A stretch of DNA of 64,000 nt from Schmidtea polychroa (GCA_044892525.1 CM097885.1:28956001-29020000); one strand, 5' to 3'; shown: positions 5,792 through 36,694, numbered from the stretch's first letter. The notes: a model not told the origin generated them from the letters alone. Numbers and translations: made by a program.

Positions 5792-8700
5792 TTATTGTCC
5801 CCCCCCCATTATGATCAAAAATGCCCCAGTTATTATTATTCCGCTGATCCACATCATTTGTTTTACGCTTATGATTTCTGATTTATCTTTGTTTGTGGTT
5901 GTTGATGTCGTCTCTGTATTTTTATGACTACCGCCTTTGCCATTTCCTTCTATCCTTCCTCGTATTCTTGCTATCTCCTCGTTCATACCTTCCTTTGCCA
6001 TTTTTTGTATTTTTTCCATTTCTTCTTCTGACACATAATTATCTTGATATTTCTCACTGGTTTTCTTGCGCTTTCCTTCCTCATCTTTTTCATAATTGCC
6101 TTTTCTTTTCTTCCCCCTTTTCCCTGGGTATCGTCGACATTCTCTTTCTGGACCGTTTCTCAGGATACAGACCGTATATTCCTTTGGCGGTTGTTGTTGC
6201 GTTACATATTGTAGGCAGTCTTCTCCTGGTCCTAGTCTTGAAATACAAACTTTGTGTTCTTTCCTTGGCTGAAGTTGTGTTATCACTATCTCACCTCCTT
6301 TACTCAGGTGTACCTCTTTCCATTTGACTTTTGTTATTTTCTTCCCGTTTCGATGTTGGTACGCTTCTTGTATTCCCACTTCTGTTATTGGTTCCGCATC
6401 TTCATTTTTTAACACTAGTCTCTGATACGCTCTAGACATGCATCTTCCAAATATACACCTTTCTTTTAGATCCCATTCCTCTTTTAAATCCCATTGTTGG
6501 TCTTGTACTCGTTTTTTCTTTTCTTGATTTAGTTCCTCTTCCTTGTTGTTGTTCTTTTCCGATTCTTTAGCTTCTTTTAACATTCTCATTCCTCCATGAG
6601 CTGTTATCATATCCACCATTGTTAGCACAATTATCATTAATATCATATTCGTCTCTATTTCCTTGTTGGTGAAAAGTAGGCATACCCTCTGTTTTTCATT
6701 GTTCGTCTTTCCCTCTTCCTTTGTTTGGTTTCTCGGTTTATTTTCCTCCTTTTTTACACTTGAGTCGTTATTCCTTTGATTATTTTCCTCTGATTTCTTT
6801 TCCTTTCTATCGTCGTTTCGCCCTTTTCTATCATTATCGTCGTCTCCATTATCTTTATCTCCCCCGCTGTCGTTTGAAATGTCGTCCTCGACATTTATAT
6901 CATTTATCAATCTGCGGTATGCTGTTAACACTCTGTTTCTCGCTAATTTTACTTCGAATTCGAACTCTTTTCTGCCTGTTGCCGCATGCCTCTTTCTATT
7001 CCATTTCTTGACTAATTCTCTCAATTGGATACGACGATGTTTTCCGATTTGCTTTTGTTCATTTTGATTTTGCGTGAATTTGAGGTCTTCCCGGTTTAAT
7101 ACGATCAGTATGATTTTAGGAGTTCCTCCTTTTGTCAGCGTATTTTTAACCATTGCGTTTTCTCCGCTTTCGTAGAACTCGTTGATATTGACTGCATATT
7201 TATTGCTTTGTGGTATTTTCCATGTTAACAGTAACTTCATGGCTTCTGAGTTTTTCCGGACTGTATTCCATTGGAACTGTGACGTGTTTTTACGGATATT
7301 TTCTACCTCAGTTTTTGTTGCATTTTTACAGATGAATCTGATCATTTCCAAATTTGGTTGTATTGTCGCCCAATCCATGGTGGAATTTCCTTCGTGTGAT
7401 ATTTCGTCAAGTCTTGATCCTGATTGATGTAGTATATGTAGTGTTTTCGGGTGTATATTTGTTATTGCTGCATACATCATTGCTGTTTCACCTTGTTCGT
7501 TTTTAGCGTTTGATTCTTCTCCTAAATCTCTGAGAATTCTTATGATTGTTATTGGTCGGTTTTCTTTTGCTGCTAATATTGCTTGCTGTAATGGTGTTCT
7601 TGAATCTTTTGTTGGTATAGTAAATGCTAGTGGTATGAATGTTTTTATTTTACTTATATCTAGGTTTGTGGTTTGATCTCTTGCGTAGTTGTGTACTGTC
7701 TTTATTATTTTCGCTAGTGTCGCTTCGTCAGATAAATCTCGCATTTCTTCGAAGAACACCTCTTTGGCTTTACGTATTACTATCACTTGATCTGAGTTCA
7801 TTTTCTTTGGTTTACTTACGGTTGTTATATCAGTTGTTATTTGATCGACTGGTTCCTCAGACTCTCTGATCACCACTTTCGTTGTTTTTGCCTTTTTTCT
7901 GTTGGAACTGTTAATGCGTTCCTCCGCCGTAAGAACTTGAATGATGCTTAGGTAGTTTTCGCGAATGTTATTCATGGTTTCCATCATATATAGAACACTC
8001 ACGGTTTCCCAAAATTTCACTTGTACTTCGTTGGTGAATTGAGATATGGATTTTTCGAAATTGCTAATTCGCTTCCCGATTAGTTGTTCGTCTTTGTGGT
8101 TTGAGAGCTTTATACCTCGTTGTAGTAGTTGATTTGGAATTTCAAACAGATGATGTCCTCTCATAGCTTCTCTCATCAAGGTATTTTCCCCTCTTGTAAA
8201 ATGTTCGTTTATGTCTATCATATAATCGTTTCTGATCGGGTTTCTCCACGAAATTAATATCCCAGTGATTGTTATCAATTTCTCCTTGATCGCTGCTAAT
8301 AATCCGTCGTACATGTTTCCTACTTCTCTGTTATCTTCGTATGACAATAGATCTAATAGGATTATGAATGCTTCAGTACTTTTCCCTTCGATTGCATGAT
8401 GTAGTGCATTTTTCTGATTATGATCTTGCGTGGTTATCTTTGACCCTGTCTCAAGTAATGCAGTAATAATATCTTTAGTTTTATTGCGATTTGCTGCTAT
8501 CATCAGTGGGGTGTAACCTCGATTGTTTTCTTGATCTGTCGAAATGTTACAGTCGTGAAACGCTTCGATTGTTTCCAGTATCTGTTCATTATTTCCAACT
8601 TTTAAGAGCTTGTGTAGTGGTGTGTCTCCGTAGTGATCTGTGATCGTGAACAATATAGGCCATTGGCTTTTAACTATTCTGAGTAATGGGTGTGTTCTTT

Positions 8701-11149
8701 CTCGATTCGCATAGTTTTCTATCATTGTTAGTAGACCTCCCAATATCTCGAAATCCAATTTATCTTTTGCCCATCCTGGTATTTTAACTTTTACCTCCTT
8801 TATAATTTTCTCGGCTTCTGATGGTTGTAGCCCCAATCGATTGCCTGTTGGTTCGTGTATCTGTTGTAACATGTTCATTCTATACGTTTGTGATCTTGTT
8901 GTTAACGTTCGCCCTTCCGGCTGACTAGTCGCAGTTTTCGGTATTGGTTTACATCGCACCACATTTACATATATCGGCCTTGTAAAAGGATTGTCTACTA
9001 ATCGTACTCTTACGTTAGTTTCTCCGACGAATAAAATCTCATACGGTCCTTTGCCGTTTCGTTGTAATTTCCTGGTGGTTCCGGGGATTAATTCTGGTGT
9101 TTCGATCATCACCCAATCGCCTGTTTGAAATGTATGTTGTTTAACGTTTTTCTTTCTATCATGCAAATCTTTGTAGCTTTCTTGATAAAACTTTATATTT
9201 AATCCTGCAGTTTCCCAGATTTCTTGCATTCTTTCTTTAAATTTTGTTACGTAGTCGTCTATTTCCATGTATTGGGATATTGGTGGTTGATACTCTAAAT
9301 CCATTGGCATATTGCATTCTCTGCCATACATCAACTTGAACGGACTCATCTTTGTGGATGCGTGAATTGACATCCTGTAGGCCATTAAACATAATTTTAT
9401 ATACTCATCCCAATCCCGTTGATGACGGTCGACATAATTTGATAACATTTGAATGAGCGTCCCGTTGAATCTTTCTGTCATGCCATTTGTTTGTGGATGG
9501 TACGGTGATGTTCTTAATTTTGCAATCTTGAAGTAGTTGGTTACTTCGCTCATTATTTCGCTCATGAAATTTGTTCCTTGATCAGTTAGTATCTGTTTAG
9601 GCGTTCCATATCGGCAACATATTTCCTTTACTAGTATTTTCGCTATTGTTTTTGCTTTCTGATCTGCCATAGCAAATGCCTCGGGGAATTTAGTCAAATA
9701 GTCCGTGATCACCAATATATAGATGTTTCCTCTGTCTGATTCTGGTAGTGGACCGACTACGTCCATTGATATCATTGTCATTGGTTCCGCTGGCACTGGC
9801 ATTGGCGTTAATGGTGCTTTCCATTTTGTTCCCGTATTTTTTCTTGTTGCGCAGGTTATACAATTTTTCACCCATTCTGTTACGTCTTCAGGTAACGTCG
9901 GCCAGAAGTATTTTTGTTTCATTCGAGCCAGCGTCTTTTTTGATGACATATGTCCTCCGAGTCTTCCGTCGTGGTATTGTGTTAACAAATCTTTACGTCT
10001 ATTCTCTGGGATACACATGAGTCTCTTTTCACCATCCATTATCAATAACCAATCTTTTTCTATTATATATCGGTGTCGGTGTTTATCCATATGCTCTTTC
10101 AACTTTTGATCTTTCTCATATACCTCCGCTTTCCCTGTTTTCACATATTCAATAATTTGCTTCAACTCCACATCTTCCTGTTGGTCTTTCCGTAATTGGC
10201 AAAAATCTAAATCTTCCGCTACCATCAGACATATCCGTTGCATTTCGTGATCTACTAAATCTGGAAAAATAAATCTTGACATGCAATCTGCATTGGCATT
10301 CGCTCTTCCCGCTTTGAATTTTATGAACGGCGAATATTCTTGCAACTGCATTGCCCATCGCATCAACCTGCTTGAAGCTTCTTTATGTTGTCCGAGCCAT
10401 ACTAATGGTTGATGGTCAGTGGTTATGCATATTTCGTGACCCCATAACAAATATCGAAAATGTTTAATCGCTTGTATTATGGCTAACGCTTCGCGCTCGG
10501 TTACGGAATAGTTTCTCTCATGCTTTTTAAACGTTCTGCTGTAATAGCCGATTACTCTTTCTTTTCCTTCCTCATCTAGTTGTCCTAGTATTGCTCCGGC
10601 TGCATACCCACTTGCATCTGTTGCTAGTAAGAACGGTTTCTTGAAATCCGGATGTACTAGTATTGGAGCTTCAATCAATTTATCTCGTAATGTCTCAAAT
10701 GCTTTTTGTTGTTCTGCACCCCAAATAAATGAAGTATCCTTTTTCACTAATTCCTGGATTGGTTTCGCAATACCTGCGTAGTTTTTAATGAATTTCCGAT
10801 AATATCCGCATAATCCGAGAAATTCTTGAACTTGGGTAACAGTTTTTGGTGCTGGACAGGTTTTTATTTTCTCTATATTTCTGGGATCTGGTTCTTTGCC
10901 TTTTGCTGACACTATGTGTCCCAAAAACGTGACTTTCTCTTTTGCCCAATCACATTTTGATGGTTTGAGTTTCAACTTCCATTGTCGTAATCGAATGAAC
11001 ACGTTTCTGATATCTTCCAAGTGTTGTTCATATGTTGCTGAATATATTAACAAATCATCAATATATACCATGCACTGCTTGATTCCGTGTGTGACAAAAT
11101 TCATACATCTTTGAAAGGACGCTGGAGCGTTGGTTAGTCCAAATGGCAT
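5792..11149 (-). CDS. pol: Pol C-terminal part: RT palm, RNase H, integrase, two ankyrin-repeat modules, membrane-anchored tail
   Basis: MPFGLTNAP, YIDD, LATDASG, H-x6-H/CxxC zinc motif, DVVGP, TDQGTNF, ERFNGTL, GPY, and ankyrin motifs GDTPLH, GYTPLMIAA, GETAMMYAA. Probably continues to 5643 through a frameshift in the C run near 5800. Confidence 0.93.
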   Translation of the reverse strand: MPFGLTNAPASFQRCMNFVTHGIKQCMVYIDDLLIYSATYEQHLEDIRNVFIRLRQWKLKLKPSKCDWAKEKVTFLGHIVSAKGKEPDPRNIEKIKTCPAPKTVTQVQEFLGLCGYYRKFIKNYAGIAKPIQELVKKDTSFIWGAEQQKAFETLRDKLIEAPILVHPDFKKPFLLATDASGYAAGAILGQLDEEGKERVIGYYSRTFKKHERNYSVTEREALAIIQAIKHFRYLLWGHEICITTDHQPLVWLGQHKEASSRLMRWAMQLQEYSPFIKFKAGRANANADCMSRFIFPDLVDHEMQRICLMVAEDLDFCQLRKDQQEDVELKQIIEYVKTGKAEVYEKDQKLKEHMDKHRHRYIIEKDWLLIMDGEKRLMCIPENRRKDLLTQYHDGRLGGHMSSKKTLARMKQKYFWPTLPEDVTEWVKNCITCATRKNTGTKWKAPLTPMPVPAEPMTMISMDVVGPLPESDRGNIYILVITDYLTKFPEAFAMADQKAKTIAKILVKEICCRYGTPKQILTDQGTNFMSEIMSEVTNYFKIAKLRTSPYHPQTNGMTERFNGTLIQMLSNYVDRHQRDWDEYIKLCLMAYRMSIHASTKMSPFKLMYGRECNMPMDLEYQPPISQYMEIDDYVTKFKERMQEIWETAGLNIKFYQESYKDLHDRKKNVKQHTFQTGDWVMIETPELIPGTTRKLQRNGKGPYEILFVGETNVRVRLVDNPFTRPIYVNVVRCKPIPKTATSQPEGRTLTTRSQTYRMNMLQQIHEPTGNRLGLQPSEAEKIIKEVKVKIPGWAKDKLDFEILGGLLTMIENYANRERTHPLLRIVKSQWPILFTITDHYGDTPLHKLLKVGNNEQILETIEAFHDCNISTDQENNRGYTPLMIAANRNKTKDIITALLETGSKITTQDHNQKNALHHAIEGKSTEAFIILLDLLSYEDNREVGNMYDGLLAAIKEKLITITGILISWRNPIRNDYMIDINEHFTRGENTLMREAMRGHHLFEIPNQLLQRGIKLSNHKDEQLIGKRISNFEKSISQFTNEVQVKFWETVSVLYMMETMNNIRENYLSIIQVLTAEERINSSNRKKAKTTKVVIRESEEPVDQITTDITTVSKPKKMNSDQVIVIRKAKEVFFEEMRDLSDEATLAKIIKTVHNYARDQTTNLDISKIKTFIPLAFTIPTKDSRTPLQQAILAAKENRPITIIRILRDLGEESNAKNEQGETAMMYAAITNIHPKTLHILHQSGSRLDEISHEGNSTMDWATIQPNLEMIRFICKNATKTEVENIRKNTSQFQWNTVRKNSEAMKLLLTWKIPQSNKYAVNINEFYESGENAMVKNTLTKGGTPKIILIVLNREDLKFTQNQNEQKQIGKHRRIQLRELVKKWNRKRHAATGRKEFEFEVKLARNRVLTAYRRLINDINVEDDISNDSGGDKDNGDDDNDRKGRNDDRKEKKSEENNQRNNDSSVKKEENKPRNQTKEEGKTNNEKQRVCLLFTNKEIETNMILMIIVLTMVDMITAHGGMRMLKEAKESEKNNNKEEELNQEKKKRVQDQQWDLKEEWDLKERCIFGRCMSRAYQRLVLKNEDAEPITEVGIQEAYQHRNGKKITKVKWKEVHLSKGGEIVITQLQPRKEHKVCISRLGPGEDCLQYVTQQQPPKEYTVCILRNGPERECRRYPGKRGKKRKGNYEKDEEGKRKKTSEKYQDNYVSEEEMEKIQKMAKEGMNEEIARIRGRIEGNGKGGSHKNTETTSTTTNKDKSEIISVKQMMWISGIIITGAFLIIMGGGQ

Positions 11150-11170
11150 TTTCCTGAATTGATATAGATC

Positions 11171-12550
11171 TCAGCCCAATGTAAATGCTGTTTTCTCTTT
11201 GTCTTCCTCTTTGACCTTGATCTGCCAATATCCGCTTTTCAGATCTAAAGCCGTAAAATATGCGGCCCCTTGTAACATAAGTAACATCTCATTGATATCT
11301 GGTAGCGGGTATGTGTCTCTTTTCGTTACCGCATTTAGTTTCCGATAATCGATACAGAATCTCTGAGTACCGTCTTTTTTCTTCACCATAACTACTGGAA
11401 ATTGCCATGGTGAACAACTTGGTTCTATTACTTGTGCATCTAGCATCTTTTGCACTTCTGCTTCAGCTATTTCTTTTTGCTTTTCCGCTAGTTTATATGG
11501 ACGTAATGCGATTGGAGTTTCGTCTATCAACGGTATTGCGTGTAAAGTAACATCGCATGCTCCCAAATCTAAATCTGAAATTGCGAATATATCTTTATAT
11601 TCTATCAATAATTGCTGAAGTTTTCCCTTTTCATTCTCTGTTAGCAAGGTACTATCGATTGTCCATAATTCGTCAGCCTTGATTGGTTCGTCGGTGACTT
11701 TTGGTAATTCAATTTCCATCATCGGTGTTAATCTACCCAATCTTTCATTCTCATATATGATCTTATCTTCTTCCTCGAAATTCGTGATGTTAATTGGTAT
11801 TTCTCCTTCTCCATTGATTGTTATTATTTCCCTTGCTAATGGTAATTCTCGTCTTTTTTCGAATGATTTGCTTGGTTCGAATATGGCTTCTCCTTCCATT
11901 CCTGCGTCTACTTTTATTTGACATATCATTTGCGACTTTGCTGGTACAATTATTCTCTCCGGACATCTAATTGTTGCATTCATCTTACATATTCTACCCA
12001 TTTTATCTTTCAGACACATTGTTGTTAGATCTATTACTACTTCCTTGAACAATTCGGGCATCAAATCTGTTCCGGTGATGCATGGTTCGCTAAGTTTCGG
12101 TATTACAGCTAAATAGGTTTCGATTTCATTATCTTGATATCGTAACGTGGTCCACCATCTTCCTACTACGTCTACGGTTTCTTTGCTGCATGCGATGATG
12201 TGGATCGTTGTTTGCTCAATATCCTTCCAATACTTACTTGGTATTTGGTTTATTGCTATCGCTGATACGTTTGCTCCTGTATCTATCATTGCGCTTGTCT
12301 CTTTTCCGTTGATTTGGATCATGACTGTGACTGCTGCGCCTCCTGGTGAACTCATTACTGCTATTGTTCTCACATCATCCGCTTGATCTACACTTTTGGT
12401 TCTTCTAGTTGGCATATAATGCATCCTGGTTGACTTGGTAGCTGTGGATACATATTTTGTGTCATGGTCAAAGCTGTTTGTTGTCCAACGATATCCGGTG
12501 ATATATAACTCCCGTTGGCGATCCAGGTGTTTGTCTTTTCCTTTTCCCAA
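11171..12550 (-). pseudogene. pol: Retropepsin protease, spacer and RT N-terminus (separated from the rest of pol by one in-frame TGA)
   Basis: IDTGA, SPWQFPVVMVKKKDG, RFCIDYRKLN, LDLKSGYWQ. TLG*DLYQFRK-MPFG reads in frame into the 11149 ORF. The relevant coding part starts near 12400. Confidence 0.9.
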
Positions 12551-14716
12551 TACGGTGCTGTTTCTATCGGCTTTTCGTTCGGATTTCTACTTGGATACAG
12601 ACATTTATCGTTCCCTTCATCGTTGTCATCGCTATCGCTGCTGTTGGATCGATTTCTGAATTTATCCAGAAATTTCGGTTTGTTCTTCTTTAATTGGGTT
12701 CTTGTGGCTTCATCATACATTACTTTCCGGAATCGTCTACCAACTTCTTCGTCAGTCCCTTTTATTTTTGTTAGTATTTTAATTAATCGTTTTATTCTAT
12801 GGATGTCTTTTGAGTGACCGTGCAATACCATGGTTTTTGCCAAGAATGGTAGGAATCCTACTATCATTTTCCAATTCACTTTCTTTTCTCGCTTGTATAT
12901 ATCAAAACAAGCTAACATTTGTGTTAGTATTACTCTGACAATTTGGATTATGAGTATGATTCCCAATATTCCGGCCATCATTTGTCCGAAAACCAAGAAT
13001 CTTCCCCACATCGCTTTCATCATATTTGATGTTGCTTGTTGAAAATGGTCTGGAGATAATAGTAGCTCGTAATTTGGACCTGATTGATAATTTGTTCCCC
13101 CAGTTATCGTTACCATATTTGACAGAATAGATTCTCGTCTGGCTGGGAAGAGTACGTTAAGTCGTGCTGTTTCTAGATCTTCTGGGCAATACATACCTCC
13201 GTTTGATACGTCAATGGGTTTGAAGACTTGTTCCGTGGCGAGTTCTATTAATCCAAATTTCTTGGGCTCCTCTGTTATGGATTTTACCGGTAACATTATC
13301 CATTTCCCATCGGGTCTTTCATACAATGGTCCGTACGCATTAGAACAGTTAAATAGATTTGGGTAGAAGCCTACTGGGTTCATAATTCTGGTGACTGGTT
13401 GGACGAATCGATTTTGTCCTTTATAACGAATCTCTAATTCATTTGCACATTTCTTTTCTGGTAGCGTGGATTTTTCTGGCATTCGTGCATACCTCTTGGT
13501 ACATTGGTATATGTACATCACTTCTCCCACCATTCTACCAAAATGTCCATCAGGTAAAGGGAGTGATGGCATCGTATTATCTGGGTGTGTTATCGCGATA
13601 GCTAGTTTCGTTTTTAATATCTCTTTATTTAACGAACAATCGTCGTTTTGTATCAGGTCGTAATAGACTTTTTGCAAGGTCGTTTGTCCGCGGTGAAATA
13701 GAAAGTCCATTTTGTTATTGGCGTATAGGTATAACTTGACGTCCTCGGTGGCTATCTTTCCCACTGCTCTATCGATTATTTGTCTCGACATATAGATACC
13801 AGCGTAGTTGGTTTTATATACTATACTATCGCATTTGGTGGTTTCTTTCTCTTTGATGAATCTCATACCTAGGTCAGGATCGTCTGTGATTAGTGCCATT
13901 GGTGTTTTCTGCGTTGAGAGTCTTTTTTTCTCTGGGCGATGGTGGCACTGGTTTTCCATTTCGCATTCGCACTCTTCCATTTCCCTCCTTGTCATCTTCG
14001 TTCTCATAGATTTCTCCTTTTACCTCATTGAACAAAGCACTTTTTAACAGTTGGAGTCGGCATTTTTGGGTATTAGCTTCATATATGATGGTCGATACTC
14101 CTGTTCTACATACGTTTTCCGTAGCTCTACAAGCTGGGTTGGTTTTCATTTGGTAATTATTGGCGTCAAATTGCGCTTCGTATTCTTTTAATTCGACCGT
14201 ATAGGACTCGATCACTACTACTCCCGATATCACCTCGCCTCGAATCGTATAGGTACCTCCGTTGCATGATCCATCTGATGATTTTACTTTTCCGGACACA
14301 TAAACACTTTCAGTTTTGATCATTCCGGTTTGTCCGTGTATCGTTACTCCGTTATGCATTTTCATCGCTCCTGTTCTAAAGAGCTCTTTACAGTCCTCTC
14401 TTTGTATTTGCACGATTTCTTTATCTAATCCGGGTAGTATGAGAGTCGAATACGAATATTGTCCGCAATAATATGCGAGTACCTTCTTCGATACTACGCA
14501 TTCCCTTGCTTGTGTTCTGATGAAATCTGATTCTTGATATACATGGTAGGTAACTTTGGTGTTCACTATGTCCAATTTGTTGGGTGACGCCTGTCTGCAT
14601 TCTTCTATATCTCTCAATGAGTATTTATCTCTCATTACCATATTATCGCAATCGTAAATCGTGAAACTTGTTGCCCCACTTGTACATAACATCCATATCA
14701 TCATAGTCATCATTAA
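12388..14716 (-). pseudogene. env: Envelope glycoprotein, chuvirus-G-like, split by a frameshift near 13900
   Basis: Signal-like LMMTMMIWMLCTSGATS, then FTIYDC..YSLRDIEEC..YQESDF..ECVV..YYCGQYSYS. C-terminal half GEVMYIYQC..CANEL..FVQPVTRI..CS. TM segment WGRFLVFGQMMAGILGIILIIQIV. Confidence 0.75.
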
Positions 14717-14839
14717 TGAGTTGATCGACGCTTTCCTGCTGGCTGGATCTTTCATTGGTAATTCCCATTCTAGTTCATTCAATAGTTTTTTCAATCGAAC
14801 TTGCATTGATCTTTCCTGCTCGTTTTTTCGTGGCGCTTG

Positions 14840-15226
14840 TATTAATCTTTTCCATCCTCCGGCACGGATAATATGTGGTTCGATTGTATTTTCTATGATT
14901 GTAACTGTCATTTCTACATGATTTGCGAATTGTTTGTTAGGTATTTTCCTCGCTGCTAATCCCATCAGATTGTACATTAAATACGTTAGCACTACTAGAT
15001 GATGTTCGTCGTCGTTTTCTTTTAAGGTTAATTGTTCGATCACCCTTCTGGTCTCTTCCCAATCTGTCTTAGTGGTCTTGGTTTTCTCTTTTATTAATTT
15101 CGGAATTATTCCGGATATTATATTCCACAGTTGTCTGGCTTCTGCACTTGCTACCTTTCGTTGCCATAATCGTCTCAATTGCGGGTTGGTTATTATTAGC
15201 ATATCTTTTACTAACTCTCGTATCCA
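14840..15226 (-). CDS. Putative Bcl-2-like helical domain within the polyprotein
   Basis: BH2-like IEPHIIRAGGWKRLI preceded by a BH1-positioned hydrophobic helix (RRVIEQL...HLVVLTYLMYNL). The NWGR motif is not conserved. Confidence 0.5.
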
Positions 15227-15301
15227 CCTTTCACCTCTTTCGATGGTTGGTTGGGCTTCTTTTAGATTCCACACTATTTTATCCAGTTTCTCCAATCTGA
15301 T

Positions 15302-17204
15302 TTATCCTTGTTCTTGTTTTAGTTGTTCTCTGGTTTTAAATTCTGGTTTCTCTCCTTGTTTCTTGGGTCTTCCTTTTGCCCGTTTTTCCATCATTGTTCC
15401 AGCTTCTCTTGTCATTTCGTAACTCGGGTTTCTCTCATTATCTGTTCTTTGTAATGAGCTATCGTTATTTCTCAACCATTCATTCCATTCATCTATTATT
15501 TTATCGGTTTGACCTTCTGGTGTTATTCTGGTTGGTTCATTTTGTTTCCTGAATTGGTCATCCGTTTCGGTTTCCGTAGTATTGTCGATGATTTCTTCGA
15601 TGTTTAGTTTTGTTGGTGGTTGGTAACTTGTTGATGGTTGGTTGTTAGTCCATATTTCTGCCCCTGTCGGCCGTCTTACTAGAATTGGTGATCTTTCTCC
15701 AGCTTCTTCGTCGCTGTCTTCTAGTATGATCTCCTCGATTTCCTTGGTTTCGTTCGATTTACTTGGCCCTTTGTCAGGACTTGGTCTACTCAGGCTACCT
15801 TTCGCGGGTCTGCTGGATTTGGTTTTCCTTTTGATGGGTTTTCCTAATGTTTCTGCCATTGTCAATACATTGATTTCCCCCAATCTCATGGGTGTTATTC
15901 CGACATCCGCATTATCATCTAGTGATTTTCCTCGTAGTTGTAAATGGAATGGCGTTTCGTATGCTAATTTCTTTTTTAATTCTCTGATTTTTGTTGTTGG
16001 ATGCACTTCTATTTCCTCGATGCTTTTGTCGGGGTATTTGATTCGGATATGATACCTTTTGGTTTCTCCATTTTCTAATAATTTGTTCTAGCTGTTCTGG
16101 ATACCATTCATTATACTGTCGGTATTCCTCTATCGCTTTCGCCATTTCTCTCAGATTGTGGATATTCTCCGATGTCTTTAGAATGATGTTAGCCAATGCT
16201 ACCACTTGTCGTTTTTGGTTTTTTGCTCCCATTGCTAAGATATCATTTAATTGTTTATATCTTTCTTTCTCTTCCCGTTCTCTCGCTTCTATTGCTTCTT
16301 CGCCGTCCATATCGGCATATTCACGTTCCTTTTTTCTCATTGCATGAATATGTCTAGTTTCTGTTTCGCTTTCAGACGTGACATCTGTTTCACTTTCGTC
16401 ATCTGATATTGGTTCTATTTCGTCTTCTTCGTATTTCGGAGGTTCATCTTCCTCTTCTTCTGACTCACTTTCTATCTCACCGATGTCTGTTTCTACGAAA
16501 ACTCCTTTCCTGATTTCCCATTCTTTATTTTTCGCATTCCACATCCTTTCCCACGGGGTTCGTCTGCAAGATCTAGTACTCAGTTTCTTTATTTTCCCTT
16601 GTAGTTCTTTTTCGTTTAGCCATTGTTGATGCATTTCAATTATCTCTACTGATTTTTGGTATAACGTCTTCATCCTATCTCGTATCTCTTTCTGGTAAGT
16701 TACATCCCTTGTTCGGAATTCGTCCATGGGCAATATTCTAATTATTTGATGATTATCCCATATTCCCATTTCGCTTAACGAGGTGTCGTCTTCAGCCCGT
16801 AATATTATTTTATCGTACATCATAACCGCATCATCTATCATGCCATCGCTACTCTCGCTTCGTACTTTTTCCGTTATCTCTTGGTTTATTTTTGATACCA
16901 AGTCATCCACTGTACTCTGGTTGCTCATTTTCATTCGTCGTTTTTCTTCGTTCGGTAACCATAGGGTTATTTCTAATTTCTGTGGTTGTGCTTCTTTTAA
17001 CCTTCCATATTTGTGAATCAAATTGATGGTTCTCCAATCACTCATCCTGAGCAATTCAGTATCGCGTAATCGACTCATTAGTTCATGCATCGCTGAGGCT
17101 CGTCTTGCTATGAGTAAATCCCAGTTATCCTCGACTTGTTCTTGGATTTGTTTGATTAATTTATCTAAATTTCGTCGTAAAGTGCATTGTTTTAGTTGTT
17201 CCAA
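15302..17204 (-). pseudogene. Polyprotein segment with two ubiquitin-like domains and acidic/low-complexity linkers (frameshift near 16080)
   Basis: Ubl at 16731-16979 (STVDDLVSKI..YDKIIL..DDTSLSEMGI) and at 15857-16054 (YHIRIKYPDKSIEEIEVHPTTKIRELKKKL..LQLRGKSLDD). In frame with gag upstream and with the Bcl-2/env ORF downstream, across stop codons. Confidence 0.65.
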
Positions 17205-17270
17205 TTTCAGCTTGATATTAAAATCGTATTCAGCCTTGGCGTCCTTAGCCCATTCCTAAATGTTAGCGGG

Positions 17271-19760
17271 TTATTTTTCTTTATGCAACTTAAATATTTG
17301 GGTTTCTCCTGGCCAAATTAGTGCGTCAATTAGGTGCATATCTGGTCGGATTTGTTCTCCTTGATATTGATATAGATACTCTTTCTTCCTCGAACTACCT
17401 AAATGTTCCCTGATCCAATCGAAAAGCTCATCGGTAACTGCATTTTTTATCCATATTCTCAGGAGTCCTTTGCTCGTCCCGATTTTTATTACATAGCGTG
17501 TCGTATCTGCTTGTTTCATTTTTTCCATATACTTCTTTATTATCGTTTTTTCCTCGCTTGGAATTAGATCTTTCTCGTCTCTTTCTAGTTTCATTATCTT
17601 TTGTATGAAGCGTCTATATGGTATAATGTCAATTAATTCCTGGTTTCTTACTACCACTGGAAGTATTTCTTTTACTTGTTTTATCGCTTCTTCTCTTTCT
17701 TTTCTCAATTTTATCTCGATATTCTCATCTTCACTTTCACTTGTTACATCGCTTTCGCTCTCACTTTCGTGCTCTTCTGCCCCAATCTTTTCTCTCAGTT
17801 GTTCGATATTTTCATTTAACTGGAATATTTCTCCACCAAGGCTACTTACATAATCCTCCTCGTCATCTGTTGACAATACCTTTTTTGTCGTCCTCATCAT
17901 ATTAATTCGTAAATTTCTCATTCTTGGTACTCTCTTTAACCTTTTATTCTCGAATATCGTTAGCTCTTCTGAGTCTAATTCTTGTATCATATCATGATTT
18001 AGATGATTAATCTGTTTCTCATTTTCGTTATTTCCCGCTTCCGCTTCTGTTTTGATTTTCTCGTGTTCCCTTTCGATTTTATCTTTTATCTTTTTCCAGA
18101 ATATTTTCTGAATTCTCTGATTTCCCTTTAGCGGAGTTCTTGGATTTTCCTTTTTAGCTTCTGTAATCGTTTCTTTCGGTTTCTCCGGTTCGATCAATGG
18201 GGCTACTCGTGGATTTTTACCGTAGTTATAACAATATTGCTCTTTTATCTCTTTTACCATTCTCATCATATTTATTCGTAACGGTTGTTCCTGTCGCTGC
18301 TGAATTCGCTCTCTTTTTATTCTCTCTTCTTCGGCTTGTAATCTCTGCCATTCTTGTGCATGTTGTTGTACTTCATAACTATTGAGATTTTCAGTGCTTC
18401 TCATCATACGGATATTCTGAGTTTGTTGTGGTACTTGTTCTTGTCTTGGTCTCATCATTTGTTGCATCATCTGTTTCATTTGTGAAATCTCTTGCATTAC
18501 ATTCATTTGTTTTCCTTCACTGGGGTTACTTTGTCGTTGCGGATTTGGTGCATAATTATTATTTCGCTGTGGTGGTCGTTGTTGTTGGCTCCTCTCTCGG
18601 CATTCTCTTGAGATATGACCTGGTTGACCACAGTTATAACATGCTCTTGCTTGACATATGTTCTCCGTATGTCCTCGTCGTCCGCATCGGTTACAACTTG
18701 CATTTCTATAGCAATCTCTATCCCAATGCCCTAGTTTTCCGCATGTTCGACATTGTTTATTTTCGTTCATATTTCTCCTGTTATTGGAGTTATTTCCGTT
18801 GGTCATATTGTTACGCTCGCTACTATTTCCACTAGGTCGTCCTTGTGGTGGTTTGAAAATTTGGTGTGCTCCTGGTATAAACTGATTCATCTTTGGTTCA
18901 TGATTATTATGATCGTTATTCTCGGCTTTCACCGTTGCTGTCGCGATTCTTCCCTCTTCTTGCATGACATTCATTTGTGCTGGGAGGTGAAGTTCGCATT
19001 TCGTGGCCCAATCTATAGCCTCTTCCATTGTTTTGCACATTTGACATCCCACCGAGGCCCGTACCTCTTCTCGGCGTAGTCCTTCTACGAAATAACCAAT
19101 TAGGTTTTCCTCCGGTAAGTTTCCGTTCATGGCCTTCTTGGCCAGTCTTCGCAATTCACTTGCATATAACGTTATTGATTCGTTTGTTCTTTGTTTTCTA
19201 CTTGCCAGTTCGTTTAGCGCTTGATTAATTGGTTTGCTGGCTCCGAAAGTTTTCCGCAAAAATGTTTTAATACTTTCCCAATTATTCAATGTCGCATTTC
19301 TTTCTTTTTCTTCTAGGTACACTTCGAGTGCGCTATCGCACAAAAACAAAGGCATTCGTTTACTGATTGCTTCCTCTGACCATCCGCACACCGTTGTGTA
19401 AACTTCAAAGTTGGTTATAAACGCTGCTAATTTATTCGCATTCCCATTGAAGGGTTCGCCTCTGAATTTCTCCTTATACTCTTCTGGTTTGCTAACATTC
19501 GTCATGATCGGTTCTTGAAGTTCTACGATTTCTTTTAAATTATCTAACGATGTGGCTAAACTATGGGTGGATAGTTCTTCGGTTGATGCTGTTAGACTGT
19601 TCGTTATATCGTTTATGCTTTCTCTGCTTCTAGATCGACTTGGGGTAACTCGGGTTGTTGGGCTTTCTTTGTCGTCTATTGGTATTCTGGTGGTTTCGTT
19701 AGGTCCTTGTGATAATCCTCTTTTATGGCGATTTGGTCTTGTTCTTTTGATGCTTTGCAA
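17271..19760 (-). CDS. gag: Gag (capsid domain, three CCHC zinc knuckles) with C-terminal extension including a Ubl-like domain
   Basis: PFNG..FITNFE..W..LFLCDSAL capsid-like region; CRTCGKLGHWDRDC, CNRCGRRGHTENIC, CYNCGQPGHISREC. The frame stays open upstream to about 19865, so the true start is uncertain. Confidence 0.9.
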   Translation of the reverse strand: MQSIKRTRPNRHKRGLSQGPNETTRIPIDDKESPTTRVTPSRSRSRESINDITNSLTASTEELSTHSLATSLDNLKEIVELQEPIMTNVSKPEEYKEKFRGEPFNGNANKLAAFITNFEVYTTVCGWSEEAISKRMPLFLCDSALEVYLEEKERNATLNNWESIKTFLRKTFGASKPINQALNELASRKQRTNESITLYASELRRLAKKAMNGNLPEENLIGYFVEGLRREEVRASVGCQMCKTMEEAIDWATKCELHLPAQMNVMQEEGRIATATVKAENNDHNNHEPKMNQFIPGAHQIFKPPQGRPSGNSSERNNMTNGNNSNNRRNMNENKQCRTCGKLGHWDRDCYRNASCNRCGRRGHTENICQARACYNCGQPGHISRECRERSQQQRPPQRNNNYAPNPQRQSNPSEGKQMNVMQEISQMKQMMQQMMRPRQEQVPQQTQNIRMMRSTENLNSYEVQQHAQEWQRLQAEEERIKRERIQQRQEQPLRINMMRMVKEIKEQYCYNYGKNPRVAPLIEPEKPKETITEAKKENPRTPLKGNQRIQKIFWKKIKDKIEREHEKIKTEAEAGNNENEKQINHLNHDMIQELDSEELTIFENKRLKRVPRMRNLRINMMRTTKKVLSTDDEEDYVSSLGGEIFQLNENIEQLREKIGAEEHESESESDVTSESEDENIEIKLRKEREEAIKQVKEILPVVVRNQELIDIIPYRRFIQKIMKLERDEKDLIPSEEKTIIKKYMEKMKQADTTRYVIKIGTSKGLLRIWIKNAVTDELFDWIREHLGSSRKKEYLYQYQGEQIRPDMHLIDALIWPGETQIFKLHKEK

Positions 19761-20827
19761 TTGTTCTACTGAAAATAATGTATCGTATTGATTACTTGAG
19801 GATCTGAGCGTTCTTTGATTTGCCGTGATTTCTACCTGTAGTCCCTTTATCTCTCTTAGTTTCCTTTACTGGGTCGGGTTCCGAATTAGATGTCTTCGGT
19901 ACTCGGTATAGTCTCTTCAAAGAATATTCCACGTAGTTTTCCGGCGGATTTCCTGAGGAGATATCTGAGTCCTTGATTGGCTTCTGCTAGTACGTCGATG
20001 CTAAGTATTTCGATGATTCCGTCGTAGATGAAAACGTCGTCGTTGTCCTCCGTGTTGAATGGGTTGGTTTTCTTTTGCGCGGGTTCTGAATTGACGTCCA
20101 CTGGATTGTTAGTCTATCTTTTCCAAATTCATTCTGAACTGGTTCTGAATTGACTTGGTGGAATTGATATCTACAATGAAAAAATGATATCGTGTTGCAT
20201 TTGCTTACACGAATCAATCATTCCTTTTTTCCACATTCAAGCACAAACACCGTTTTAGGGCCTCTGTTATGCTTCTCTTCCTTTCCCCGTATAATCTTCG
20301 TGGAATATAATTACCCATCAACCCATAATTTTCGTCGATTTTAAATTATCTATTTGGGGTAGTAACAATTATCTATATGGTCGTATAAATAATCCATAAT
20401 TATCATTTATAATATCGATAAGTCGTTGTCGGTTACTGCTTATTACCCCCCATATTTTCTTAATCCTTTCACGCGGTTCCGCTATTTTACTTAATCTTTC
20501 GTCTCTGTTTCCCTTACTCGGTTCTACTCTGGAACCGAAAACAAAATTCGTTTATCTGGTTTAAACCCAAAAAAAAATTCTGTAGGACTTTGTCTACTTA
20601 CCTGGGATCCCCTTTAATTAATTATTTTCCTCCTTTACTCATTATTTATTCACGTTTATTCTTTATTTTCATTATCTCCTTAATCCATTTTCCTTTTCTA
20701 TTTCTACTTTTTTACTAAAAGAATTTTATTATTTCTTCACGAGCTCGTTTAATCCTCTCTATATTCGAATTCCCGTATCTAAATTCAATTCGTTCTAGCT
20801 AGCTTTATTATTCTATTCTATTATTCG

Positions 20828-21745: not shown

Positions 21746-22225
21746 CTAACTGAAATAGATCGTGTGCTTCTCTTTTATTACACAGGTACACATAGAACAA
21801 CGGATTAGACTGGCGGCGCATTCGTCACAATGGCTAAGGTGCCCACAAGGTAGAATCAGAATTTTGGCAGGTCGCGTCTTGCAAATGTTGCACGTTCTCA
21901 AGGCCGCTGCTTTCTCTATGATCAAGACTCGTATTCTCTTAGACAGAGTTTTTACTTGTTCGCGTATTTTCACATATTCGATGTTCAAAGCGGGGTCGTC
22001 GAGTCGTTGTTGCATCCATTGGTAGTGGATAGATAAGTCAGTGTCGTTATTTGTTGATCCTAATCTGTCTGTTAAAAAGTTTTGCTTGGATATGAGTGGT
22101 GCGTTGTGGCGTTGTTGTTCTAGGGTCTCTATTTGTTGCAATTTCTTTCTTAACGTCTTTAGTGAGTCGATTTCGATGTCGACGAACCGGCTTAATCGTT
22201 GTAGATGTTGTCGGGCTTCTGACAT
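21746..22225 (-). CDS. Coiled-coil plus C-terminal IAP-type RING finger protein
   Basis: CNICKTRPAKILILPCGHLSHCDECAASLIRCSMC...IYFS at the extreme C-terminus; intact ATG-to-stop ORF; no BIR domain seen. Confidence 0.85.
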   Translation of the reverse strand: MSEARQHLQRLSRFVDIEIDSLKTLRKKLQQIETLEQQRHNAPLISKQNFLTDRLGSTNNDTDLSIHYQWMQQRLDDPALNIEYVKIREQVKTLSKRIRVLIIEKAAALRTCNICKTRPAKILILPCGHLSHCDECAASLIRCSMCTCVIKEKHTIYFS

Positions 22226-22637
22226 ATCTCAAGAAATGTGTTGTCATTACTCGGTTTCACTTATAAAAATAAAATAATATTATTGTGTTGTAATCGATAT
22301 TTGTTTGGTTTTAATTCGTGATTGTTTCTAGTTTATGTATTTTATTCAATCTCTAACAATTCCCCCTTTTTTTTTAATTTAATAAATTAAGATTAAACAA
22401 AATTAGCCAATTCCCGTTTTCTTCTCTCATCATGCTCAATCATATTCATTCATACCCATTTAGATTCATTTTATTCGCATCGTACTTTATTTCGAACTTG
22501 AGCAATCCGTATAATCATTCCATTGCAGTATAATATCGAATTACTTTGTTTCGGTCCCGTTTCTGTGTCGTTATCGTCATTAATTGTTAATCTAACGCAT
22601 TATAATACAATAATAGGTAATTACACAAATCAAATTC

Positions 22638-22655: not shown

Positions 22656-23152
22656 AAAATCATGTTGGCATATGTGGGGAAAGAAAATGTGCACACACAA
22701 TTTCCCTACCTATCAAACGTCAGTATTCTGCTCAGACCATTCCCTCACACATTCCATATGATTATTCATATATTCCCACGTATGAGCCCGTGGTGATGTT
22801 CCACGTTGGTGATGCTCACACGGGTCGACAAAGGTTAGCAGGTGAGCCCCTGCCTTAGGACTACTCCTAACCCCTGCTCGGTTCGGGTCCTACGGTGCCT
22901 TAGAAGGTCTTACCCTTGTTACTCATATAATTCAGTCCAACCTCGGTCCAAAGGGGACGACATTTGAGTTCAAATCATATCTCCAAAATCACTTTCCTAT
23001 TTAAATCAATCAACGCAATTCACACATACAACTAACATACTCAAAGAAACCGAACAGTTGTATTGAAACAAACAATAACGAAAAACATTTAAAGGGATAT
23101 TCACTATTAACTGAATAACAACCAAACATTGAAAATCATACGCCAGACAATG

Positions 23153-23968
23153 TCAATTCTTGGAGTTCTTTCTCAATACAGGGAATCGAGACTCATGAGA
23201 GAAGTTGTTACGAGAATGCTTCTCCTTCCCGAGCATTTTGTCAATATCGACGGGTAAATAGTGATCCGTGACATATTTAATTCCTCCCGCCGGAACTATC
23301 TTAAAAATCTCCTTGGAGGGAATTGAATGATTCGAGGATATTTCCTTTATGGCGGAGTTAGCTGCGGATAACGACGCTTCGAGAGCTGCCATCGCATCTC
23401 GGCGTTTCTGGTTTTTCTCGGCTCGGGTTGGCCGTTTCCGTTTGCGAGATGATGGACGGTTATCCGCGTTCGAGGTGACGACAGGTGCTATTAAGATGGG
23501 AGCTAAGATTGGATCGGTAGGTCCACCTACCAAAGGTTGATAGCTTGATAACGTTGGAGCCGGAACTGGTGGCAAATATGAACCATGCCCTTGACAGCTG
23601 GGGGTAGTCGATTGAGATATTTGATGATGGGAAGGAAAAACATTCGATCCATCCAATACGGGATATTCGCGTACTCGCTTTGCTATTTCTGCCTCCGTGT
23701 AAACCTTATGGAGGGCTTCTGATTGTGCTTTTATTGTGAGCCTTTGACATCGGCTCTCTTCCAGTAGGCTGTCCCTACAGTGCTCCAGCCTGAGGATCTT
23801 AGCCTTTTCCTCCTTCATCTGTGGCGGGGAGAACCACGTTCTTTCGTAAAAATCTATCCTCTTCTTGAGGGCCCCTATATATAAATGGAGTTGCGCGATG
23901 TCCGAGTTCTTGTCAGAGCAAGAGAAACACGGACGCAGTTCTTTGGCTTTAGTGGAGAGTACTGACAT
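23153..23968 (-). CDS. Orphan 271 aa ORF inside the LTR (CxxC, coiled coil, Pro-rich, basic NLS-like RKRKRP)
   Basis: Intact ATG ORF; ATG immediately preceded by acceptor-like TTTATTTTCTAG. Confidence 0.6.
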   Translation of the reverse strand: MSVLSTKAKELRPCFSCSDKNSDIAQLHLYIGALKKRIDFYERTWFSPPQMKEEKAKILRLEHCRDSLLEESRCQRLTIKAQSEALHKVYTEAEIAKRVREYPVLDGSNVFPSHHQISQSTTPSCQGHGSYLPPVPAPTLSSYQPLVGGPTDPILAPILIAPVVTSNADNRPSSRKRKRPTRAEKNQKRRDAMAALEASLSAANSAIKEISSNHSIPSKEIFKIVPAGGIKYVTDHYLPVDIDKMLGKEKHSRNNFSHESRFPVLRKNSKN

Positions 23969-25567
23969 CTAGAAAATAAATCATGTTTCACACTTAAAAG
24001 CCACAATCATTATCCTATTAGTTGAAATTAGAACCTATACTCAGAAAATTCGTCCATCACGCCAATCAACAGCCTCTACTAAGATGACTTGTTTCACTCG
24101 TCCGCACATCCTACATTCACTCATTTACGAAACAGCATTCAAACGCATTGCTTTAATCAAGATACTCAAGGGAAGAAGACGGGGAATATTAAATTCAATT
24201 CATTACTGAAAAATCTTCAATTTACTCTATATAATAAGGAGTTGTATGTTAATTTCTATATCAGTGTTAAACCTGAGGTTCATAATGACGAGTTAAAATT
24301 TAACAAATACAATAATATGTGGAAATTAAATTATATCATTAACGTGGAAAAATTCAAATTATGTCATAATGCATCGAAAGTTAAATTATACAAATTTTGT
24401 AACCGGCGCTATATTCGTCGTCATGGTGACGTCTACTTGTGTGTATGGGTGTATCAAACTCTCAGTGCTGGCGATGCGAGTTCGTGTGCCTAGGTACGAT
24501 AATTTCAACTCACGTTTTTTCTCATAGTGTTCATTTCATCTACCTCAGTGTAACAGATGTCATCTACTCATTCGTACTACCCACTGTCTCTTTCTCTCCA
24601 GGAGCTGTCATAAATTATTATGTAATACTACTATTATGGATGAAATCTATTGCCTAACTCGAATTGGCGTTTAGTGGAGAAGAGATTAACTATGGGGTGT
24701 ATAAGTGCTTGTAATGTACGAGTCCTAGTGGCTTATCACTTTGTCGGAGACGTCATGAGTAATGTGTCGTAGATACAGCACTACCATAAGACTGACAGAA
24801 AATTCGAACTGGGATGGACAACCTAAATCTCTTATCGTACGATCGACTCTAATCAACATCTACCTACGCATCTACACAGTCAGCTCGTTATGTACATCAG
24901 TCGGTATTTATCTCTGTCAGAGTTTCGTCGGGTATTCAATTCGGGCGGTTATCATCTGCCTAGACTTCACTCCTCAGTTCACTGATAAATCTCACAGCGA
25001 TTCCCTTGATTCAAATAATAATTAACTGATAAGTCTGACAGCGATTTCTTGCGCTTTTGTAGTAAGTACTCTGATAACTTCTCCTGGTTTATTTACTCGA
25101 TTTTCGGGAAAACGACGCTTATCGTAAATTCAAGGTCGACAATCTCACTTAAAAGTACATCGGCGAACGGGTGTGGGCGCTAATGTCCTCATGATCTAAA
25201 TCGAATGATGTCTCAAGAACAGTCTATTGCCGGATTCCATTCAGAGCTATTCGTGTTGTGAGCAACAAAGATTCATTCTGACCACTCTGATCGACAAGCG
25301 GATATCGGACACAAGAAAATGTTCTCTTATCGAGGTGGATTTTTATTAACAAGTGGCAAATGTAACGGTGCTTTTCTTTTCAATCTGAATCGTCTTTTGG
25401 AAATCTAAGTTGTATCCACATTTCTCAGAAGAACCGGTTAACTGGATATAATGACAAAGAGAAATTCTATAAGCGACCGTGATCGGTGAAGGAAATTCTC
25501 ACTGTGTAATTAAATTCTCTAAGCTCCTGAGTTTCCTCACCCCTCATGACCACCCAAGAAGGCATTC

Positions 25568-25765
25568 ATTGCTGCCGCCGTTCTTGCACCGTCATGAGGG
25601 ACAAATCGACCCTTTCACATTTCGATAATCAAAAATTCACATGCAATTATAATGATGATAGATAATAAATAAAAAACAAATTACTCGACGACCCTATCAT
25701 TTGGACTCCAAGTGTGATGCTCCCTCATTCCCAAATCACCAGTTCAAATCCAGCATTAATTAGTA
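25568..25765 (+). repeat. 198 bp direct duplication, left copy (right copy 41161-41358)
   Basis: ATTGCTGCCG...CATTAATTAGTA occurs on both sides of the Polinton; one substitution seen. Confidence 0.95.
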
Positions 25766-26758
25766 GTGTGGTTATATACCCAACCAAAACAGCCCTCCCA
25801 ACAAAACATGCCTCCAAATCACTTAAGCTATTAGAAAAACAACCTAAAACTTATACTTTTATAGTATTTTAACCCTATATTTTGAAAACAACCACCCTTA
25901 ATGACTCTAACTGTTTTAATCTTTAAAGCCTCAAACTCAAAAGCTTCAAACTAAAAACATAAAGAGAATAGAAAAGAAAATGGTATTATGAAAAAGTAAG
26001 AAGGCTACTTGAGGATGCCAACTAGCAAGTTGCTAATTGGCTAATTAAAAAAAATAAATGAAATCTTAATCTTGATGTCTTGAAGAATAAAAAATTTTAT
26101 GAAAATAGTAAAACTGCTCTGAGAGGACAGTGGTATTTTTTTTTTTTTTTTTTTTTTTCACTGTCATCTCAACAGTTTTTTTGATCCGGATCATTTTTTT
26201 CTTTTATTCAACCTCTTTCGTTTATCAAATCTCTTCCAATATACAAGCTGGCCAGGCTCATAATCAGAATCAATTCGATAATAGCAGCACACCTTATTAT
26301 TCGCTTCTCGCTCGAATACGATTTCATCGGCGTTTTAAGTGTGCTGCTCGAAAGTACAAATGAATTCGAAAGTGAATTCGAAAGAGGTCCGAAAACAACT
26401 GAGAAATAAATGTGCACATTAAAGAATCGATCCGGGGGTGTTCGAAAGACAGGTGGCGATAATTACCGGTTCGCCACCATCACCCGTTTCAATAATTTTT
26501 TTTTCATATTTATGTTTAAAAAATAAAATAAAATAAAATAAATAAAATAAAATAAAATAAAAATAAATAAAATAAAATAAAAATAAATAAAATAAAATAT
26601 AAATCTAAGATACCCACACTATTATTTTCAAATTTTTAATATTATTTTATGTTGAAAAAAAACTAACCACAGTTAGGATTTGAACCGCTATCCATTTGAA
26701 CCACGGTGCCGGTCTAGCCCACTGCGCCATCAAGGTTTGAATTTTTGTCATTTTTTTA
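25762..26758 (+). repeat. Polinton left TIR
   Basis: Near-identical reverse complement of about 40194-41162; contains (AAAAT)n. Confidence 0.93.
26655..26737 (-). ncRNA. tRNA-like Pol III unit 1 (in left TIR)
   Basis: A box TGGCGCAGTGG (26719-26729), B box GGTTCAAATCC (26676-26686), T8 terminator. Confidence 0.6.
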
Positions 26759-26885
26759 ATTTTTAATTTATAAAAAAAAAAATAAAATAAAATAAATAAA
26801 ATAAAATATACAAGTACTTTATAAATATAAGATACCCACACTATTTTCAATATTATTTTCAAATTTTTAATATTATTTTATGTTG

Positions 26886-26968
26886 AAAAAAAACTAACCT
26901 CAGATGTGATTTGAACCACTAGCATTTTGAACCACTGTGTCAGTCTAGCCCACTGCGCTATTAAGGTT
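26886..26968 (-). ncRNA. tRNA-like Pol III unit 2 (diverged tandem copy of unit 1)
   Basis: TAGCGCAGTGG, GGTTCAAATCA, T8; part of a ~230 bp tandem duplication. Confidence 0.5.
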
Positions 26969-27035
26969 TGGATTTTTGTCATTTTTTTAATTTTTAATTT
27001 ATAAAAAATGAATAATATAAATCTTAAAAAATAAA

Positions 27036-31355: not shown

Positions 31356-31441
31356 AACCAACGATATTTAATAATAAAATGTCGACAATTAATTTAAGCA
31401 ACTATAGCCACTTGATCTACTTTTTTAAAAATACACCCATT

Positions 31442-32038
31442 TTATAAGTAAGAATTCTTTAACCATTTTTCTCGAGATGTTTTTTTATTACTTATAACAT
31501 TAGCCACCATGCCCTCCCTTTTTAATCTTATAACCTCATTCTTTATATCTTGTATTATTTGATTTGATTTCATTATTTCTTCTTCTGTCAGGATTCCATC
31601 TTCCAAAGCTTTTAATTGAAATAAAAATAATTTAGAGATTCCTAATTCTATTGATAAACAAACTTCTCTATATAAACTTTTCTTTTTAGAAGTATAAGAT
31701 AATGAAACTATTTCAGTTAAGAAACCATCAGCCACAGAAATACTTCCAAGTATTACAGGTGCAAGAGTAACAACTGGTAAAGTTATGGGTAAAATAATTG
31801 TTAATATTGCAGATGCAAATCCTAAAGAATAACCTATAACTTTTAAAACTGTATTCCCTTTATTCCATCTATTTTTAATTTTTTTATAATGCTTTAATAA
31901 ATCTTGTAAATGTAAGGTTTCTGATTTAAATTCTTTTACTCTCATAATTTCAAGTTCTGTGGGAGCCGAGGCCTTGGAAGAATAATATCCTGATGATCTC
32001 AATTCTGGGTAAATTTTTTCTTCTCTTACTTCTTCCAT
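31442..32038 (-). CDS. Polinton conserved membrane-associated protein (PW/'gasderminX'-like)
   Basis: HYKK..W followed by a double hydrophobic segment and a KALEDGILTEEE motif. Confidence 0.55.
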   Translation of the reverse strand: MEEVREEKIYPELRSSGYYSSKASAPTELEIMRVKEFKSETLHLQDLLKHYKKIKNRWNKGNTVLKVIGYSLGFASAILTIILPITLPVVTLAPVILGSISVADGFLTEIVSLSYTSKKKSLYREVCLSIELGISKLFLFQLKALEDGILTEEEIMKSNQIIQDIKNEVIRLKREGMVANVISNKKTSREKWLKNSYL

Positions 32039-32046
32039 TTTAATAA

Positions 32047-33057: not shown

Positions 33058-33081
33058 TTATTAATAATTTAAAATGAATCT

Positions 33082-33846: not shown

Positions 33847-33894
33847 TTCTTTAGGAGTAAATTCATATAGTAAAAATCCTTATAGTAAAAATCC

Positions 33895-34359: not shown

Positions 34360-34381
34360 TTTGTATTTTAAAACTTCGTAT

Positions 34382-35275: not shown

Positions 35276-35297
35276 TTTAATGGTATCAAAAATGGTA

Positions 35298-35876: not shown

Positions 35877-35891
35877 TTTATAATAAACAAA

Positions 35892-36683: not shown

Positions 36684-36694
36684 GGCTTGTCGAC

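Follow-up and report, generated by a model that had tools for sequence, protein, structure and literature searches.

A predicted class III fusion glycoprotein lies between Gag and protease in a probable Burro-type giant gypsy element of the planarian Schmidtea polychroa

Introduction

Is a viral-type fusion glycoprotein that sits inside the polyprotein of a giant gypsy element a recent acquisition, a passenger, or an inherited and working part of the element? A 64,000-nt stretch of the Schmidtea polychroa genome (GCA_044892525.1 CM097885.1:28956001-29020000; hereafter the window) raises this question. A first-pass annotation had proposed that it holds a gypsy element with a chuvirus-like glycoprotein between Gag and protease, captured independently from an RNA virus in an unusual gag-env-pol order, and had suggested a comparison with the planarian Burro elements.

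Much of the background is in print. Giant gypsy elements of the Burro/GYPSM1 type are known from dugesiid planarians (Jurka 2007; Grohme et al. 2018, as cited in PMC6431247). Arkhipova & Yushenova (2019, PMC6431247) placed the planarian Burro env in frame between gag and pol; the Burro env matched mononegavirus fusion glycoproteins, the review linked it to gypsy Env/baculovirus F, and the provirus hypothesis for Burro elements already appears there. Chary & Hayashi (2026, PMC13524379) described gypsy elements of GAG-ENV-POL order with an HSV/gB-type env in Nematoda, Bryozoa and Platyhelminthes, including six gB-type elements from S. mediterranea, and argued for an ancient origin, with the entry mechanism given as unknown. 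Transcripts of BURRO1 rise on SMEDWI-2 knock-down (PMC8532177), and Anakin, a mosquito BEL/Pao element, carries a chuvirus glycoprotein (PMC7642597); further background sources are PMC12440569 and PMC11410931. The gag-env-pol order with a gB-type env is an already published arrangement and not a discovery: the novelty first claimed for the order does not hold, as it was in print for Burro in 2019 (PMC6431247) and appears again in PMC13524379.

Organization of the element and comparison with Burro

The window carries a minus-strand LTR element that spans ~5.5 kb to 42.4 kb (Table 1). Its coding span (19,865-5,792) comprises 4,691 codons and is broken into seven open frames, with frame changes near 16,090, 13,940 and 12,430 and stops at ~17,270, 15,302 and 11,171. 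The Pfam domain order is Gag - env - PR - RT - RH - IN - ankyrin (Ank_2, E 2.2e-19), so env does lie upstream of PR, as first annotated. The Pol order PR-RT-RH-IN is that of Ty3/gypsy, and the RT of a sister copy searched against the PDB gave Ty3 RT as the best match (E 3.4e-48), followed by a match at E 2.3e-37 and by retroviral RTs at E 3.7e-17 or weaker. A BEL/Pao host element was considered and rejected.

Table 1. Features of the gypsy element and of the DNA element inserted in its LTR, in window coordinates.
Feature	Position	Strand	Evidence or remark
RT C-terminal part, RNase H, integrase, ankyrin repeats, two C-terminal hydrophobic segments	5792..11170	minus	Pfam, hydropathy
Aspartic protease, 160-aa linker, RT N-terminal part; in-frame stop 11,171-11,173 inside RT	11171..12586	minus	RVP E 7.4e-9, RVT_1 E 7.3e-11
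env gene, predicted class III fusion glycoprotein, between Gag and protease	12,388-14,716	minus	PF24664
Cytosolic tail/linker running into protease; frame change near 12,430	12388..12924	minus	Continuous with PR in sisters
Transmembrane anchor	12925..12981	minus	KD19 2.53
env ectodomain, C-terminal half (central helix and later domains), second frame	12982..14019	minus	PF24664
env ectodomain, N-terminal half (gB-like domains I/II by analogy); frame left near 13,940	13874..14658	minus	PF24664
Signal-peptide-like stretch, internal, weakly hydrophobic, ahead of ectodomain	14656..14716	minus	KD12 1.82
Bcl-2-like helical domain (weak), directly before env	14810..15301	minus	PF00452 E 0.024
Ubiquitin-like segment (weak) and low-complexity linker; in-frame stop 15,302-15,304	15302..16087	minus	PF00240 E 0.017
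Polyprotein segment between Gag and ubiquitin-like part	15915..17255	minus	No Pfam match at E<=10
Gag, Retrotrans_gag and two CCHC knuckles	17271..19865	minus	Retrotrans_gag E 1e-9, zf-CCHC E 2e-9
Accessory RING-finger ORF between LTR and gag	21746..22228	minus	zf-C3HC4_3 E 6.4e-9
PBS-like stretch after 5' LTR	~22,640-22,657
5' LTR, inner 3.1 kb	22663..25765	minus	95-96% match to six separate units elsewhere; terminal TG at 22,663 on +
Polinton/Maverick-like DNA element interrupting 5' LTR; foreign to the gypsy element	25774..41162		809-nt inverted repeats
5' LTR, outer 1.0 kb	41359..42354	minus	Same six units continue at 93-94%; terminal CA at 42,354 on +

The polyprotein of the host family is ~4,700-4,800 aa long and reads Gag - Ub-like - Bcl-2-like - Env - PR - RT - RH - IN - ankyrin. 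The Bcl-2-like segment recurs as a PF00452 match at the same position in three relatives (E 0.032, 0.00096 and 0.2), and all four matches miss the cut-off; a single-sequence model of the domain was unusable (pLDDT 43), and PDB sequence searches with this domain and with the PR-RT linker returned nothing meaningful. MATH, BIR and dUTPase-like domains gave no Pfam match at E<=10 in the polyprotein. Two further hydrophobic segments follow the ankyrin repeats at the polyprotein end (window 5,792-6,700, minus strand).

The comparison with Burro proved apt, and the anatomy matches that published in PMC6431247. Like Burro, the family has one giant ORF (4,732-4,811 codons from stop to stop in sister copies, against 4,873 aa in Burro), an N-terminal Gag with CCHC knuckles, ankyrin repeats, an accessory ORF, an LTR of several kb and a high copy number, and its env stands in frame between the Bcl-2-like segment (a weak match) and PR. 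The Bcl-2-like and Ub-like matches, both short of the cut-off, fall where a Burro element would carry these domains. The knuckles number two, as in the D. tigrina element, and three in Burro1. Unlike Burro, the family has no detected MATH, BIR or dUTPase-like domains, and the window copy is broken and shows no 3' LTR. MATH/TRAF, BIR and dUTPase-like domains vary among Burro elements, and ORF1 of the D. tigrina element likewise has no MATH domain (PMC6431247).

The closest of the six published S. mediterranea rows is Platyhelminthes_Rhabditophora_Smed_errantivirus_5 (ENV_HSV, cysteine group C1a; PMC13524379), likewise a flatworm gypsy element with a gB-type env. Over the domain I/II stretch the two align without gaps at ~104/187 identical residues (~56%, counted by eye), which indicates a different family or host species. 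One intact copy is listed for that element in PMC13524379, against at least 45 same-length open frames for the family here. This family may already be described in the supplements of Grohme et al. 2018.

The env gene and its predicted fold

All the motifs first named for env lie on the minus strand, at 14,656 (YDC), 14,473 (YYCG), 13,527 (GEVMYIYQC) and 13,407 (FVQPVTRI). The transmembrane anchor is strong: the helix from 12,981 is the only 19-residue window above 1.6 in the second env frame. The signal-peptide-like stretch fared less evenly. Its position is conserved: 11/11 longer, mostly polyprotein relatives carry hydrophobic residues just ahead of the same [YF]DC (KD12 1.94-3.45), and in 3/3 stand-alone glycoproteins of ~660 aa this segment forms the N-terminus; its hydrophobicity in the window copy is weak, with a best KD12, by hydropathy only, of 1.82 from 14,716. 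A candidate protease site at 14,725, directly before the signal, is one of 20 matches to a loose pattern, counted without a chance control.

In the window, env passes from one frame into another near 13,940. The N-terminal frame matches PF24664 (Monjiviricetes_fusion, Pfam) over profile positions 3-208 (E 8.5e-27) and the C-terminal frame over 244-579 (E 1.3e-43), and the two halves share 239/254 and 292/306 aligned residues, respectively, with a sister copy. All 22 of the 22 nearly invariant positions of the family alignment are kept across the two frames. The frame change near 13,940 falls in an A-run, the same codon is hit in another locus (L005), and a third env match also follows the frame of the window; this recurrent change may reflect shared descent, slippage or sequencing error.

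Structural comparison relied on the unbroken ectodomain of a sister copy (550 aa, modelled from a 103-row alignment), which gave a model with pLDDT 89, pTM 0.75 and a 48-residue central helix. In a fold search of the PDB, all the listed matches were herpesvirus gB (best E 7.6e-14, TMq ~0.44), with TMq of 0.38-0.46, below 0.5, for all but the last of them. A fold search of a viral library returned chuvirus-like and related negative-strand virus glycoproteins as the best matches (E 4.4e-37), with TMq up to 0.74 at 17-21% identity. The env profile reaches gB by sequence as well (E 4.6e-5), and a single-sequence PDB search with the ectodomain yielded 0 matches, so that profile and fold searches were needed. 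The model, with the long central helix and the conserved cysteines of this class, thus shows env to be a predicted class III fusion protein of the gB/chuvirus type. The chuvirus-like character first proposed is upheld by PF24664 on both halves and by a sister fold that resembles both chuvirus G and herpesvirus gB. The 2019 review linked the Burro env to gypsy Env/baculovirus F, whereas the fold here is class III and gB-like; the class III fold and PF24664 indicate that this env is not of the F-type of Drosophila gypsy, and an F-type env was rejected accordingly.

Anakin offers the same glycoprotein family on an LTR element, but one of BEL/Pao type in insects rather than gypsy (PMC7642597). Drosophila gypsy errantiviruses combine a Ty3/gypsy Pol with an env, and a soma-to-germline infection model has been put forward for them (PMC13524379). 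Their env is F-type and a separate ORF after pol, whereas the env here is gB-type, in frame and before PR.

Taken as a whole, we favor the reading, at a probability of about 0.7, that the window holds a Burro-type giant Ty3/gypsy element in a decayed state, whose class III Env belongs to an env-pol lineage and whose particles would be made by way of a membrane-threaded polyprotein. The internal signal would direct the ectodomain into the ER lumen during translation, and the single transmembrane helix would halt the transfer, leaving Gag before it and PR-RT-IN after it in the cytosol. Signal peptidase, the protease of the element and possibly furin might then free the parts; furin could possibly cleave at a basic R-x-K-R site, which lies in a flexible mid-ectodomain loop modelled with low confidence. 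Capsids may bud through the Env-bearing membrane to form enveloped particles, and the trimeric fusogen could carry the element between cells, for example into stem or germ cells. Such cell-to-cell spread would be as in Drosophila gypsy, which uses a different env. Several features count against this reading: a single polyprotein implies Gag, Env and Pol at 1:1:1, which is unusual for a retrovirus; the signal is weak; the ectodomain of the sister copy inspected contains only one N-glycosylation sequon; the searches detected none of the MATH, BIR and dUTPase-like domains of Burro; and the TM-scores to gB stay under 0.5.

Sister copies and selection on env

The host genome assembly (781 Mb, 1,012 contigs) contains many relatives of the window copy. 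Of 611 candidates from a DNA-level search with the env segment, 40 were scored: the window copy and 39 others, which are 87-91% identical to it. The first-pass placement of env inside the polyprotein, which is not visible in the broken frames of the window copy, stands in the sister copies: the env motifs and the protease motif share one open frame in 27 of the 29 sister loci fetched, and 19 of 30 loci stay open along the full 5,325 nt. Identity among the 26 loci of equal length is mostly 97-100%, which indicates a recent expansion of the family. The open frames around the best 80 env protein matches, drawn from 2,581 candidates, reach 4,700 codons or more in 48 cases, 45 of them with 4,732 codons, and those around the best 99 gag matches do so in 38 cases; these sets are not copy numbers and, being chosen by top score, are biased to well-kept copies. 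An env profile search of the genome scored 68 of 2,580 candidates at other places, in frames that were mostly shorter and often of 3,334 codons, so that a second env-bearing family is probably present in the same genome. The same profile matched 0 of 14 control genomes. Contigs of four runs cover the region in part; those runs that we guessed to be RNA contained no joint, and this is evidence in neither direction.

Selection was estimated by the Nei-Gojobori method for 12 of the 29 other loci, each against one natural copy; with this common reference, the pairs are interdependent. The env ectodomain (549 codons) gave dN/dS of 0.00-0.05 in 12/12 pairs (dS 0.03-0.51), RT gave 0.00-0.05 in 11 pairs, and the 500 codons upstream of env gave 0.04-0.09. 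One RT value of 1.24 (locus L004) was discarded, since that pair contains 41 frame-shifting gaps and the locus stops being homologous there. The low env values show that env is under purifying selection as strong as that on RT.

What the selection maintains is a separate matter. The same element and fold could be kept for an intracellular role rather than for entry into other cells, with Env anchoring Gag and Pol on the ER membrane, supporting budding into the lumen or ensuring correct release of PR. Because Env lies inside the polyprotein, its misfolding could harm the release of Pol, so purifying selection is possible without infectivity; the weak signal stretch fits such a role, as does the available text of PMC6431247 and PMC13524379, which carries no infection data. 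An anchor, however, needs hydrophobic segments only, whereas the RT-like constraint extends over the whole ectodomain, every family-invariant position is retained and the gB-like model is complete. We therefore consider a purely intracellular function unlikely. The stronger proposition, that Burro elements are true infectious planarian retroviruses and that the family, whose dozens of full-length frames are nearly identical, is now spreading between cells or animals as enveloped particles, is one that we put forward only tentatively and judge to be somewhat improbable; we found no demonstration of infectious Burro particles in the literature that we searched.

Relatives and origin of env

A HMMER search over 1.84 billion representatives recovered 899 env relatives. 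The closest full-length ones (28-41% identity) are long proteins, and stand-alone glycoproteins follow at ~20-27%. Of 11 long relatives scanned, 8 have a protease or RT/IN after env, 1 has a zinc knuckle before it and 2 show env only. A search with the TM-tail-PR region gave one match, an env-protease fusion fragment (P0001); the ectodomain matched nothing among 4,898 candidates at near lengths and one polyprotein at longer lengths. An env-PR-RT-IN polyprotein (P0008, HBK71150.1) is filed under a Flavobacteriaceae metagenome-assembled genome and is likely eukaryotic DNA in a bacterial bin.

The env tree is a quick IQ-TREE of 59 ectodomains, taken from 127 eligible rows of which a random 68 were omitted, with a midpoint root and no bootstrap. 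In this tree, all 9 retro-labelled rows and 5 unlabelled ones form one clade (SH-aLRT 99) apart from the ~650-aa stand-alone glycoproteins, and the env of the window family falls within this clade of envs from other env-PR/RT polyproteins. Five unlabelled fragments or long proteins fall between the labelled rows, and this alone accounts for the 5 changes that the retro label requires on the tree. Identities of env and RT correlate (rho 0.60; 15 pairs of 6 elements, the pairs not being independent). The clade and the correlation fit inheritance within an env-pol lineage rather than a capture special to the window element, and sequence comparison thus supports common descent of env in a broader lineage of elements with env-pol polyproteins.

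The origin first inferred, in which the giant element captured a chuvirus glycoprotein independently and in its own lineage, would accord with the nearest named structural relatives of env, which are chuvirus-like glycoproteins. GAG-ENV-POL elements are also not monophyletic in the Pol tree of PMC13524379, so several captures or rearrangements across phyla are possible. Against a capture in this lineage stand the closest sequence relatives, which are env-PR/RT polyproteins in one clade apart from the stand-alone proteins, and the six related S. mediterranea envs already published (PMC13524379), and we hold this origin to be very improbable. That env is a one-off or passenger insertion in decay, as its frameshift and the further breaks in the window copy might suggest, is refuted to the point of being negligible by the 39 further matches, the in-frame env of the sisters, their long open frames and the dN/dS of at most 0.05.

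For this probable Burro-type element, the S. polychroa genome adds support for a functional env and not a passenger, in the form of RT-grade selection over the whole ectodomain, together with a recent multiplication of copies that keep the frame complete. Whether GAG-ENV-POL elements with a gB-type env assemble into enveloped particles and enter stem or germ cells can now be addressed more easily in a tractable animal. Should they do so, the element would be retrovirus-like, equipped with a class III fusogen and expressed through a single polyprotein.

Element ends and an inserted Polinton-like element

The 5' LTR measures 4,099 nt with TG...CA ends and is split by a Polinton-like element; the six LTR-matching units run on into window 41,161-42,360. 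The PBS-like stretch may resemble tRNA-Pro. No second (3') LTR was found within the 64-kb window, and 39 other genome matches to the 3' end of the element stop near 5,510-5,540. The window copy accordingly measures ~21.3 kb with one LTR; neighbouring matches to env and the 3' end are spaced 26.2-26.4 kb apart, which suggests full elements of ~30 kb with two LTRs; Burro elements have total lengths near or above 30 kb. A 271-codon ORF without a Pfam match lies inside the LTR (23,153-23,968, minus strand), and tandem arrays occur near the 3' break (4,739-4,920) and in the leader (20,813-21,016), consisting of 15-nt units and three 68-nt units.

The inverted repeats of the Polinton-like element (809 nt) are 100% identical. 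It encodes PolB (27,021-31,355), an A32 ATPase (35,841-36,683) and an integrase joined to a phospholipase A2-like domain (36,695-38,113). A 198-nt direct duplication of the LTR flanks it (25,568-25,765 and 41,161-41,358; 197/198 identical); target duplications of Polintons are short, far below 198 nt. Outside the gypsy element, fragments at window 50,598-51,597 may represent a Penelope-type RT and a GIY-YIG endonuclease.
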